Source: Escherichia coli | GTDB taxonomy: Bacteria > Pseudomonadota > Gammaproteobacteria > Enterobacterales > Enterobacteriaceae | Length of the DNA stretch: 64,000 nt | NCBI RefSeq assembly: GCF_003334765.1 | Contig: NZ_QOWT01000009.1 | Direction: 5' to 3' (one strand) | In this document: in pieces, positions 39,963-46,860 of the stretch | How positions within the stretch are numbered: position 1 is the stretch's first letter | Layout of the letters: each line of letters starts with the position of its first letter | Notes under the pieces: model-generated | What the model saw: the letters and a program-made list of their open reading frames with translations, nothing else | Database searches by the model: none | Told to the model about the DNA's origin: nothing | Made by a program: the position numbers and the translations under genes

Positions 39963-40688
39963 ATGCACTTGTCTACACATCCGACCAGCTACCCAACACG
40001 CTATCAAGAGATAGCCGCAAAACTTGAGCAGGAGCTTCGTCAACACTACCGCTGCGGCGACTATCTTCCCGCCGAGCAGCAACTGGCAGCGCGCTTTGAG
40101 GTGAATCGCCACACCCTGCGCCGCGCCATCGACCAACTGGTGGAAAAAGGCTGGGTACAGCGCCGTCAGGGCGTCGGCGTGCTGGTGCTGATGCGCCCGT
40201 TCGATTACCCGCTCAACGCCCAGGCGCGTTTTAGCCAGAATCTGCTGGATCAGGGCAGCCATCCCACCAGCGAAAAACTGCTTTCGGTATTGCGCCCCGC
40301 GTCCGGCCACGTCGCTGACGCACTGGGGATTACCGAGGGGGAGAACGTCATCCACCTGCGCACCCTGCGTCGTGTCAACGGCGTCGCGCTCTGTTTAATC
40401 GACCACTACTTCGCGGACCTCACCCTCTGGCCGACGCTGCAACGCTTCGACAGCGGCTCGCTGCACGATTTTCTGCGCGAGCAAACCGGAATTGCGCTGC
40501 GCCGCAGCCAGACGCGGATCAGCGCCCGCCGCGCCCAGGCCAAAGAGTGCCAGCGTCTTGAAATCCCGAATATGTCGCCGCTGCTGTGCGTGCGCACCCT
40601 TAACCACCGTGACGGTGAAAGCAGCCCGGCGGAGTACTCCGTCAGCCTGACGCGCGCCGACATGATTGAATTCACTATGGAGCACTGA
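39963..40688 (+). CDS. phnF: GntR-family regulator PhnF (241 aa)
   Basis: Start at MHLSTHPTSY; N-terminal GntR HTH. Confidence 0.93.
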   Translation: MHLSTHPTSYPTRYQEIAAKLEQELRQHYRCGDYLPAEQQLAARFEVNRHTLRRAIDQLVEKGWVQRRQGVGVLVLMRPFDYPLNAQARFSQNLLDQGSHPTSEKLLSVLRPASGHVADALGITEGENVIHLRTLRRVNGVALCLIDHYFADLTLWPTLQRFDSGSLHDFLREQTGIALRRSQTRISARRAQAKECQRLEIPNMSPLLCVRTLNHRDGESSPAEYSVSLTRADMIEFTMEH

Positions 40689-41141
40689 ATGCACGCAGAT
40701 ACCGCGACCCGCCAGCACTGGATGTCCGTGCTGGCGCACAGCCAACCGGCTGAACTGGCAGCACGCCTGAACGCGCTAAACATCACCGCCGACTATGAGG
40801 TGATCCGCGCCGCTGAAACTGGCCTGGTACAGATTCAGGCGCGGATGGGCGGCACCGGCGAACGTTTTTTTGCCGGCGACGCCACGCTGACCCGCGCCGC
40901 CGTGCGCCTGACTGACGGCACGCTCGGCTACAGCTGGGTGCAGGGGCGTGATAAACAGCACGCCGAACGCTGCGCGCTGATTGACGCGCTGATGCAGCAA
41001 TCTCGCCACTTTCAAAACTTATCAGAAACCCTTATTGCCCCGCTGGACGCTGACCGTATGACACGCATTGCCGCACGCCAGGCCGAAGTGAACGCCAGCC
41101 GGGTCGACTTCTTTACGATGGTTCGCGGAGACAACGCATGA
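40689..41141 (+). CDS. phnG: C-P lyase core complex subunit PhnG (150 aa)
   Basis: Full ORF; recognised; operon position. Confidence 0.95.
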
Positions 41142-41722
41142 CCCTGGAAACCGCTTTTATGCTTCCCGTGCAGGATGCCCAGCACAGTTTTCGTCGCCTG
41201 TTAAAGGCCATGAGCGAGCCGGGCGTGATTGTCGCCCTGCATCAGCTCAAACGCGGCTGGCAACCGCTGAATATCGCCACCACCAGCGTGCTGCTGACGC
41301 TGGCCGATAACGACACGCCGGTGTGGCTTTCTACCCCATTAAATAACGATATCGTCAACCAGAGCCTGCGTTTTCATACCAACGCGCCGCTGGTCAGCCA
41401 GCCGGAACAGGCGACCTTCGCGGTGACGGATGAGGCGATTTCCAGCGAACAGCTCAACGCCCTTTCCACCGGCACCGCCGTTGCGCCGGAAGCGGGTGCG
41501 ACGCTGATTTTACAGGTCGCCAGCCTGAGCGGCGGACGCATGTTGCGCCTTACTGGTGCGGGTATTGCCGAAGAACGAATGATCGCTCCGCAGCTGCCGG
41601 AGTGCATTCTGCACGAACTCACCGAGCGCCCGCATCCGTTCCCGCTCGGCATCGACCTGATCCTGACCTGTGGCGAGCGCCTGCTGGCTATTCCGCGAAC
41701 CACTCATGTGGAGGTGTGCTGA
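41138..41722 (+). CDS. phnH: C-P lyase core complex subunit PhnH (194 aa)
   Basis: ATGA overlap with phnG; recognised. Confidence 0.95.
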
Positions 41723-44489: not shown

Positions 44490-45170
44490 ATGATTAACGT
44501 ACAAAACGTCAGTAAAACCTTCATCCTGCACCAGCAAAACGGCGTGCGCCTGCCCGTCCTCAATCGCGCCTCGCTCACCGTCAACGCGGGCGAATGCGTG
44601 GTGCTCCACGGCCATTCCGGCAGCGGCAAATCAACTCTGCTACGCTCGCTGTACGCCAACTATCTGCCCGACGAAGGTCAAATCCAGATCAAACACGGTG
44701 ACGAGTGGGTAGACCTGGTCACCGCGCCAGCGCGCAAAGTGGTGGAAATCCGCAAAACCACCGTCGGCTGGGTGAGCCAGTTTCTGCGCGTCATCCCGCG
44801 TATCTCAGCACTGGAAGTGGTGATGCAGCCGCTGCTCGATACCGGCGTTCCGCGTGAAGCCTGCGCCGCTAAAGCCGCGCGTCTTCTCACCCGCCTGAAC
44901 GTGCCGGAACGCCTGTGGCACCTGGCACCATCGACATTTTCCGGTGGCGAACAGCAGCGCGTCAACATCGCCCGCGGCTTTATCGTCGACTACCCCATTC
45001 TGCTGCTTGACGAACCTACCGCCTCGCTGGACGCCAAAAACAGCGCCGCGGTGGTGGAACTGATTCGCGAAGCCAAAACCCGTGGCGCAGCCATCGTAGG
45101 CATCTTCCATGACGAAGCTGTACGTAATGACGTCGCCGACCGCCTGCACCCAATGGGAGCCTCTTCATGA
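44490..45170 (+). CDS. phnL: ABC-type ATPase PhnL (226 aa)
   Basis: Start at [11 protein letters not shown]; Walker [10 protein letters not shown]; track ORF begins with TTG inside the REP. Confidence 0.93.
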
Positions 45171-46303
45171 TTATCAATAACGTTAAGCTGGTGCTGGAAA
45201 ACGAGGTGGTAAGCGGTTCGCTGGAGGTGCAGAACGGCGAAATCCGCGCCTTTGCCGAAAGCCAGAGCCGCCTGCCGGAGGCGATGGACGGCGAAGGCGG
45301 CTGGCTGCTGCCGGGGCTGATTGAGCTGCATACCGATAATCTGGATAAATTCTTCACCCCGCGCCCGAAAGTTGACTGGCCTGCCCACTCGGCGATGAGC
45401 AGCCACGACGCGCTGATGGTGGCGAGCGGCATCACCACCGTACTGGATGCCGTGGCAATTGGCGACGTGCGCGACGGCGGCGATCGGCTGGAGAATCTGG
45501 AGAAGATGATCAACGCCATCGAAGAGACGCAGAAACGCGGCGTCAACCGCGCCGAGCACCGTCTGCATCTGCGCTGCGAACTGCCGCATCACACCACGCT
45601 GCCGCTGTTTGAAAAACTGGTGCAGCGCGAGCCGGTGACGCTGGTGTCGCTGATGGACCACTCGCCGGGCCAGCGCCAGTTCGCCAACCGCAAGAAGTAT
45701 CGCGAATATTATCAGGGCAAATACTCCCTCACTGATGCGCAGATGCAGCAGTACGAAGAAGAGCAACTGGCGCTCGCCGCACGCTGGTCGCAGCCGAATC
45801 GCGAATCCATCGCCGCCCTGTGCCGCGCGCGAAAAATTGCGCTTGCCAGCCACGATGACGCCACCCACGCCCACGTTGCTGAATCTCACCAGCTTGGCAG
45901 CGTGATCGCCGAATTTCCCACCACGTTCGAAGCGGCGGAAGCCTCGCGCAAGCATGGCATGAACGTGCTGATGGGCGCGCCGAATATTGTGCGCGGCGGC
46001 TCGCACTCCGGCAACGTGGCGGCCAGTGAACTGGCGCAGCTTGGCCTGCTGGATATCCTCTCTTCCGACTACTACCCCGCCAGCCTGCTCGATGCGGCAT
46101 TTCGCGTCGCCGATGACCAGAGCAACCGCTTTACGCTGCCGCAGGCGGTGAAGCTGGTGACTAAAAATCCAGCGCAGGCGCTTAATCTCCAGGATCGCGG
46201 GGTGATTGGCGAGGGCAAACGCGCCGACCTGGTGCTGGCGCATCGCAAGGACAATCATATTCATATCGACCACGTCTGGCGTCAGGGTAAAAGGGTGTTC
46301 TGA
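45167..46303 (+). CDS. phnM: PhnM, amidohydrolase-family enzyme of the C-P lyase pathway (378 aa)
   Basis: Full ORF; metal-dependent hydrolase motif (HTDNLD); recognised. Confidence 0.95.
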
Positions 46304-46860
46304 TGATGGGAAAACTGATTTGGTTAATGGGGCCGTCCGGCTCCGGGAAAGACAGCCTGCTGGCGGAACTCCGCCTGCGGGAACAAACTCAGTTACTGGT
46401 GGCGCATCGCTACATCACGCGCGATGCCAGCGCCGGAAGTGAAAACCATATCGCCCTGAGCGAGCAGGAGTTTTTTACCCGCGCGGGGCAAAATCTGTTG
46501 GCCTTAAGCTGGCACGCTAACGGTCTGTATTATGGCGTCGGCGTCGAGATTGATCTCTGGCTGCACGCCGGATTCGACGTGCTGGTCAACGGCTCACGCG
46601 CCCATCTGCCGCAGGCGCGGGCGCGCTATCAATCGGCGCTGCTGCCCGTCTGTTTACAGGTTTCGCCGGAGATCCTCCGCCAGCGCCTGGAAAACCGTGG
46701 CCGTGAAAACGCCAGTGAAATTAACGCCCGCCTGGCGCGCGCCGCCCGCTATACTCCACAGGATTGCCATACGCTCAACAATGACGGCAGCCTGCGCCAG
46801 TCGGTCGACACGCTGCTGACGCTGATCCATCAGAAGGAGAAACACCATGCCTGCTTGTGA
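46303..46860 (+). CDS. phnN: Ribose 1,5-bisphosphate phosphokinase PhnN (185 aa)
   Basis: P-loop GPSGSGKDS; 1-nt overlap with phnM stop. Confidence 0.95.

Follow-up and report, generated by a model that had tools for sequence, protein, structure and literature searches.

Stop-to-Start Packing of the Carbon-Phosphorus Lyase (phn) Operon in Escherichia coli and Its Probable Consequence for Translation

Introduction

In the tryptophan (trp) operon of Escherichia coli, translation of trpD is coupled to that of trpE. For trpB and trpA of the same operon, Aksoy et al. reportedly described coupling in 1984. The trp operon has overlapping stop and start codons between subunit genes of one enzyme complex, as does the subject of this study, the phn operon for carbon-phosphorus lyase, which occupies positions 37220-48041 on the plus strand of a 64,000-nucleotide stretch of E. 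coli chromosome (contig NZ_QOWT01000009.1; hereafter the window, whose coordinates are used throughout). In trp, genetics demonstrated both the coupling and what it does to the balance of subunits, whereas for phn coupling is inferred.

Further native operons of E. coli resemble phn in individual junctions. At hyfHI, astDB, ydbH/ynbE, as well as menDH, an ATGA overlap is combined with a Shine-Dalgarno (SD) sequence inside the upstream gene, as in phn; coupling at these pairs was assayed with premature stops and transcript controls, whereas phn is known here from its sequence (Huber et al., 2019, PMC6728339). Of the native E. coli pairs with a distance of -4 that were assayed, four of five showed strict coupling (PMC6728339), and coupling was lost by a spacing of about 20 nt (Huber et al., 2023, PMC10666635). 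The three distance classes that all prokaryotes show in excess are -4, -1, and -8 (PMC12548453), and E. coli genes for complex subunits have a 4.5-fold excess of short distances (30.4% vs. 6.8%; PMC10666635).

Our reading of the locus, which we consider probable, is that of a known phn operon in which phnF to phnP are packed stop to start, the internal start codons are real, and linked translation, as inferred from this layout, is the most likely consequence.

Gene Order and Junction Distances

The locus is the ordinary, well-known E. coli carbon-phosphorus lyase operon with a cryptic, frameshifted phnE allele. Fourteen co-directional cistrons follow one another in the order phnCDEFGHIJKLMNOP, with the named proteins confirmed, and every proposed gene translates in one open frame that begins with ATG and ends at its only stop. 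Several E. coli chromosomes match the segment 40688-46860 with 100% identity, and 5,381 of 5,426 complete E. coli genomes contain at least 80% of it. The cistrons are as follows:

37220-38008, plus strand: phnC, first cistron, ABC ATPase; strongest SD sequence in the operon
38033-39049, plus strand: phnD
39155-39942, plus strand: phnE, pseudogene
39963-40688, plus strand: phnF, regulator; stop codon directly followed by the phnG start
40689-41141, plus strand: phnG, core complex subunit (TIGR03293)
41138-41722, plus strand: phnH (TIGR03292)
41722-42786, plus strand: phnI (Pfam PhnI, PDB chains)
42779-43624, plus strand: phnJ (Pfam PhnJ, PDB chains)
43621-44379, plus strand: phnK (TIGR02323)
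44490-45170, plus strand: phnL (TIGR02324)
45167-46303, plus strand: phnM (NF011981)
46303-46860, plus strand: phnN (NCBIfam equivalog)
46847-47281, plus strand: phnO (NCBIfam equivalog); SD motif AAGGAG 7 nt upstream
47283-48041, plus strand: phnP (NCBIfam equivalog); weakest SD sequence of the operon

Junction distances are given as start minus stop minus 1. Of the ten junctions from phnF to phnP, nine lie between -14 and +1; the exception, phnK/phnL, holds an insertion of repetitive extragenic palindromic (REP) elements. Across the operon, seven of 13 junctions overlap and nine are at +1 or less. The overlaps that an earlier note on this window had listed, together with the phnF/phnG abutment, were all eight recovered by translation and by the junction distances; the last five lines below were absent from that note.

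phnF/phnG, 0: TGA at 40686-40688, ATG at 40689
phnG/phnH, -4: ATGA at 41138-41141
phnH/phnI, -1: TGATG at 41720-41724
phnI/phnJ, -8: ATG at 42779, TAA at 42784-42786, overlap 42779-42786
phnJ/phnK, -4: ATGA at 43621-43624
phnL/phnM, -4: ATGA at 45167-45170
phnM/phnN, -1: TGATG at 46301-46305
phnN/phnO, -14: ATG at 46847, TGA at 46858-46860
phnO/phnP, +1
phnK/phnL, +110
phnC/phnD, +24
phnD/phnE, +105
phnE/phnF, +20

Eight of the 13 junctions (F/G, G/H, H/I, I/J, J/K, L/M, M/N, and O/P) fall within the -8 to +10 class associated with reinitiation; outside it are N/O, at -14, and C/D, D/E, E/F, and K/L, which are too distant. Overlapping pairs make up seven of 13 phn junctions vs. seven of 35 other same-strand neighbours within the window (Fisher p=0.034), and for the -8 to +10 class the counts are eight of 13 vs. 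seven of 35 (p=0.012); depending on the cut-off, the enrichment over local gene pairs ranges from p=0.03 to 0.006. Against the published E. coli proportion (820 pairs at -8 to +10, 1,630 above +20; PMC10666635), the binomial p is 0.036. The enrichment is thus real but modest, because the comparison set takes in between-operon pairs, and it would shrink further against a within-operon baseline.

Conservation of the Layout

The overlap layout is ordinary, widely conserved, and already published for K-12 and about 200 genomes. Huber et al. tabulated K-12 distances that are identical to those in the window at O/P (+1), N/O (-14), M/N (-1), L/M (-4), K/L (110), J/K (-4), I/J (-8), H/I (-1), G/H (-4), F/G (0), and C/D (24), and marked G/H, H/I, I/J, and J/K as pairs of complex subunits (Huber et al., 2023, PMC10666635 Tables S2 and S4). 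In the same work, rows for pairs of clusters of orthologous groups (COGs), each covering 109-233 genomes, give the following medians, with first and third quartiles and n in brackets (PMC10666635 Table S4): G/H -1 (-4, 1; n=233), H/I -1 (-1, 2; n=230), I/J -4 (-7.2, -3.7; n=204), J/K -4 (-4, -3.2; n=218), K/L +9 (3, 24; n=206), L/M -4 (-4, 7; n=133), and M/N -1 (-4, 2; n=109).

For comparison, the junctions G/H, H/I, I/J, and J/K were read in ten other annotated phn loci on plasmids or megaplasmids, from Citrobacter, Sinorhizobium, Paracoccus, Variovorax, Marinobacter, a Proteus plasmid, Mesobacillus, Thermus, the archaeon Haloarcula, and Nostoc. Among these core junctions, 30 of 38 overlap and 34 of 38 are at +4 or less, and the tight G-H-I-J-K layout was seen in Proteobacteria, Bacillota, Thermus, and Haloarcula; Nostoc lacks it. 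The eight clusters from Sinorhizobium to Haloarcula share the G-H-I-J-K order and junctions mostly of -1, -4, or -8 with E. coli, Thermus having longer overlaps of -11 to -17; they differ from it at K/L, which is -4 to +33 in these clusters and +110, with REP elements, in E. coli.

Unlike the tight E. coli layout, the Nostoc cluster is loose: its genes lie +38 to +155 apart, and foreign ones stand among them. On plasmid pNsp_b of Nostoc sp. ATCC 53789 (1825-10720), the inserted genes encode a GNAT acetyltransferase, a FosA-like protein, a second PhnM-like protein, and an HD-domain oxygenase.

Citrobacter keeps the 14-nt phnN/phnO overlap. On the Citrobacter freundii plasmid NZ_CP151862.1, the RefSeq phnJ start (ATG 6049) truncates the conserved N-terminus and gives an I/J distance of +46; GTG 5992, which follows AGGAGG, restores the N-terminus and gives -11. 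Judging by these features, the phnJ start of this plasmid is probably mis-annotated.

Probable Linked Translation

The spacing of the phn genes suggests that they are translated in a linked way. Ribosomes ending one phn cistron would promote initiation at the next, whether by reinitiation or by keeping the site open, and translation would run along two linked blocks, phnF-K and phnL-P. Such linkage could coordinate the output of pathway proteins and avoid untranslated gaps; it would help equimolar supply of PhnG, PhnH, PhnI, and PhnJ without by itself setting it.

Several observations weigh against this reading. The E. coli -4 pair bioBF is uncoupled and initiates de novo (PMC6728339). At the tight junctions of phn, no occlusion of the ribosome-binding sites downstream is predicted: the unpaired probability of positions -15 to +5, from in-silico folds of 120-nt windows, is 0.34-0.64 vs. 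a background of 0.43 +/- 0.13. Occlusion by RNA structure (the RNA-unfolding class) was rejected as a sign of obligate coupling, as these windows show no systematic sequestration. Since the sites are unoccluded in these folds and carry good SD sequences, independent initiation is possible. How coupling works in E. coli, by RNA unfolding or by reinitiation, is unsettled (PMC12548453), as the title of PMC7538156 also indicates; the phnN/phnO overlap of -14 lies beyond the -8 to +10 window proposed for reinitiation (PMC10666635). A literature search for coupling tests, start-site mapping, and quantitative proteomics of Phn returned nothing specific. Nostoc, whose phn genes alone were read, keeps a loose, interrupted cluster in its genome.

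Complex membership adds to the points on this side. Among junctions between genes of the same complex, G/H, H/I, I/J, and J/K are tight and K/L (+110), C/D (+24), and D/E (+105) are not. Conversely, F/G, L/M, M/N, N/O, and O/P join no two subunits of one complex yet are tight; they involve the regulator, the step from PhnL to PhnM, and separate enzymes, and among non-complex junctions only E/F (+20) is loose. Spacing thus fails to separate complex from non-complex genes, and the layout is better seen as stop-to-start packing along the whole operon, broken by REP insertions, than as a feature peculiar to the GHIJK core.

These findings bear on the proposal of the earlier note that the overlaps support stoichiometric co-translation of the PhnGHIJK core complex. 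PhnGHIJ is an equimolar hetero-octamer (PMC9947105), which, with the genome-wide enrichment of short distances in complex genes, speaks for the proposal; the operon-wide tight spacing speaks against it, as does the presence of PhnK at one or two copies per (GHIJ)2 (PMC9947105). Stoichiometric co-translation may therefore be regarded as a reasonable idea, partly supported by what can be read from the locus.

The same observations can be read in a different manner, namely that the overlaps are a neutral or compaction by-product, each cistron initiating at its own SD sequence, and that initiation strengths rather than coupling set the stoichiometry. ATGA and TGATG arise easily, because three of the four NTGA bases already come with the start codon. 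The SD-like motifs at 13 of 14 starts (all but phnP), the lack of predicted occlusion, the operon-wide rather than complex-specific spacing, the uncoupled bioBF pair, and the loose Nostoc cluster all agree with such an origin. We nevertheless judge it rather unlikely: gene-pair distances are conserved across phyla with narrow quartiles (I/J, -7.2 to -3.7; J/K, -4 to -3.2), gene-pair-specific effects outweigh phylum effects (PMC10666635), four of the five tested E. coli pairs are strictly coupled, and phnP has no good SD sequence.

Coupling could also serve mainly to prevent Rho-dependent polarity and mRNA decay on a 10.8-kb, weakly expressed, starvation-induced transcript, with stoichiometry secondary. 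Tight spacing of the regulator and of the non-complex enzymes would fit this purpose, as would the polarity of the phnO::kan deletion on phnP and the fact that the only large gaps are REP insertions forming stable (predicted) hairpins. The enrichment of complex subunits among short-distance pairs, statistically strong genome-wide, argues the other way. Prevention of polarity is compatible with linked translation rather than exclusive of it, and as the principal role we regard it as a tentative possibility, slightly better placed than a by-product origin.

The junction at which linked translation might be obligate is phnO/phnP. The phnP gene, starting at 47283, 1 nt after the phnO stop, has the weakest SD sequence (-3.2 kcal/mol), and the phnO::kan deletion is polar on phnP, although this is not a clean test of coupling (PMC3463581). 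On account of the weak SD sequence, the +1 spacing, and this polarity, phnP is the best candidate for obligate coupling, and these features hint that it is obligately coupled to phnO.

Start Sites and N-Terminal Extensions

The junction distances depend on the start codons chosen. In a mechanical list of open reading frames (ORFs), five phn genes carry longer N-termini:

phnI: extended by 40 codons, from GTG 41602
phnJ: extended by 44 codons, from ATG 42647
phnK: extended by 10 codons, from TTG 43591
phnL: extended by 38 codons, from TTG 44376
phnF: extended by 3 codons, from TTG 39954

Were the longer frames real, PhnI, PhnJ, PhnK, and PhnL would be N-terminally extended and their genes would extensively overlap those upstream. 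All that speaks for this is that the frames stay open upstream. The RefSeq annotation (Prokaryotic Genome Annotation Pipeline), taken from a strain 100% identical over 40688-46860 and converted to window coordinates by an offset of 35687, has the same starts and stops as those chosen here, and thus takes the internal starts. NCBIfam equivalogs assign PhnG, PhnH, PhnK, PhnL, PhnM, PhnN, PhnO, and PhnP, with profiles that begin 0-6 residues from the chosen starts. PhnI and PhnJ, which have no NCBIfam match at 1e-10, are assigned by Pfam: position 1 of the PhnI model aligns at residue 41 of the long phnI ORF, and position 2 of the PhnJ model at residue 50 of the long phnJ ORF.

Solved structures lead to the same starts. 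PhnI and PhnJ match chains of 4xb6 and 7z15-7z19 over their full length (E about 1e-195 to 1e-236), and PhnG, PhnH, PhnK, and PhnL are tied to the solved complexes, Phn(GHIJ)2K and Phn(GHIJKL)2, via equivalog models only. Chains 4xb6_C and 7z15_C begin at residue 41 of the long phnI ORF, and 4xb6_D and 7z15_D at residue 45 of the long phnJ ORF. The solved Phn complexes were produced from plasmids with the native phnGHIJK or phnGHIJKLMNOP polycistron (PMC9947105). One state seen by cryo-electron microscopy shows PhnI bound to zinc through its free N-terminal amine (PMC9947105), and a 40-residue extension is incompatible with this coordination.

The SD sequences point the same way. Each downstream start from phnF to phnP is an ATG, and for all but phnP an SD-like motif lies inside the 3' end of the upstream gene. 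Anti-SD duplex energies are -5.5 to -11.8 kcal/mol at 13 of the 14 starts, phnP being the exception, and the background median over all start-like codons in the operon is -2.8 kcal/mol. At the annotated starts of phnI and phnJ, the energies are -10.6 and -6.6 kcal/mol, vs. -2.4 to -3.5 kcal/mol at the distant upstream codons of these two genes; over all distant upstream in-frame candidates, they are +0.3 to -4.5 kcal/mol. Two nearby codons use the SD sequence of the annotated start, namely GTG 41716, which precedes the phnI ATG by two codons (-9.9), and TTG 39954 of phnF (-8.4).

Therefore, the annotated internal ATGs are the correct starts and the long-ORF extensions are artefacts; RefSeq, family profiles, PDB N-termini, and SD energies agree on the internal starts that the earlier note had chosen. 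There is next to no chance that the extended ORFs are real, and this reading is effectively already refuted. The earlier note had also ascribed the false extensions to read-through of the upstream gene, which holds for phnI, phnJ, and phnK. That of phnL instead runs through the REP-filled spacer and would cross a pair of REP palindromes.

For phnN, two adjacent ATGs are present, at 46303 and 46306. Citrobacter has an equivalent of the second only, and the NCBIfam PhnN model aligns from residue 2; ATG 46306 is an equally possible start. The M/N distance is accordingly -1 or +2, because either ATG could be the start.

REP Elements and the Large Gaps

REP insertions account for each of the two large spacers in the operon:

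39056-39136, minus strand: REP element or bacterial interspersed mosaic element (BIME), Rfam naRNA4-type match, filling the phnD/phnE spacer (+105)
44383-44471, no strand assigned: inverted pair of REP palindromes (44386-44415 and 44437-44468) that takes up the 110-nt phnK/phnL spacer

The phnK/phnL palindromes (I3 and I4) are 86% complementary, and their GCCGGATGCGGCG motif is also found in an array at 36.3 kb. A single long hairpin (-60.7 kcal/mol) is predicted for the pair, beginning immediately behind the phnK stop (44377-44379). The Rfam naRNA4 gathering score is reached by the phnD/phnE spacer and by the yjdM-yjdN array, and missed by the phnK/phnL spacer. In Citrobacter, the phnK/phnL spacer (+89) holds a single REP-like hairpin, vs. 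the inverted pair in that of E. coli (+110).

REP elements lying no more than 15 nt from a stop codon reportedly reduce how well the gene upstream is translated (Liang et al., 2015, cited via PMC12306157). The phnK/phnL pair begins about 1-7 nt after the phnK stop, inside this range. By analogy, the pair might act as a functional break, cutting PhnK through stop-proximal ribosome stalling and forcing independent initiation of phnL-P, which we consider improbable. If true, the pair would let PhnK and the enzymes that follow be tuned independently of the GHIJ core. Such an effect at the phnK stop would be the one mildly novel lead at this locus.

The array at 36.3 kb lies between yjdM and yjdN (36301-36580) and is a tandem REP/BIME array of a 100-bp unit in 2.8 copies, with three full-length naRNA4 (RF02564) matches. 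The window is 99.98% identical over 64 kb to strain BS74R-D and differs from it in the copy number of this upstream array, which is 200 bp (two units) longer in BS74R-D; REP-array copy number thus varies between strains. This difference rules out that the window is wholly identical to BS74R-D; gene content is otherwise the same.

Further Features of the Locus

Within phnE, three copies of the octamer GCTGGCGT/C stand at 39560-39583, the third producing the frameshift. The premature stop is at 39722-39724, as in the cryptic K-12-type allele. The approximately 238 nt left untranslated from this stop to the phnF start are a possible source of polarity on the phnF-P block.

PhnI residues of about 240-302 (42559-42747) give a weak match to Pfam PhnG (E=0.0012), which hints that the two core subunits may have a domain in common.

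Upstream of phnC, the Pho-box-like CTGTCAT (37115-37121) and, downstream of it, CTGTTAGTCAC were spotted by eye. A consensus sigma-70 scan found nothing specific at this Pho-box-like region, and the consensus promoter scan was at chance level (four found vs. 3.5 expected). Terminator-like matches were slightly above chance (20 vs. 11.6 +/- 3.8 expected), a weak excess, and none of them falls in the phnK/phnL spacer.

Antisense ORFs opposite phnL/phnM (44990-46273), phnJ (42851-43621), and phnD (38156-38869) have no NCBIfam match and were treated as spurious rather than as genes. The ORF opposite phnL/phnM, on the minus strand, is 427 codons long and probably an artefact of codon bias. Beyond the operon, yjdP (minus strand), which encodes a DDRRRQL repeat protein, contains a 21-bp tandem repeat in 3.5 copies (48262-48334).

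Conclusion

The value of this analysis lies mainly in annotation hygiene. Mechanical ORF callers over-extend genes where stop and start codons overlap in different frames, and in a tightly packed operon such as phn the internal ATGs, not the longest ORFs, are correct. The phn layout is one more case of a known rule, already documented genome-wide and for these phn pairs, that short overlaps are common and are enriched in genes for complexes.

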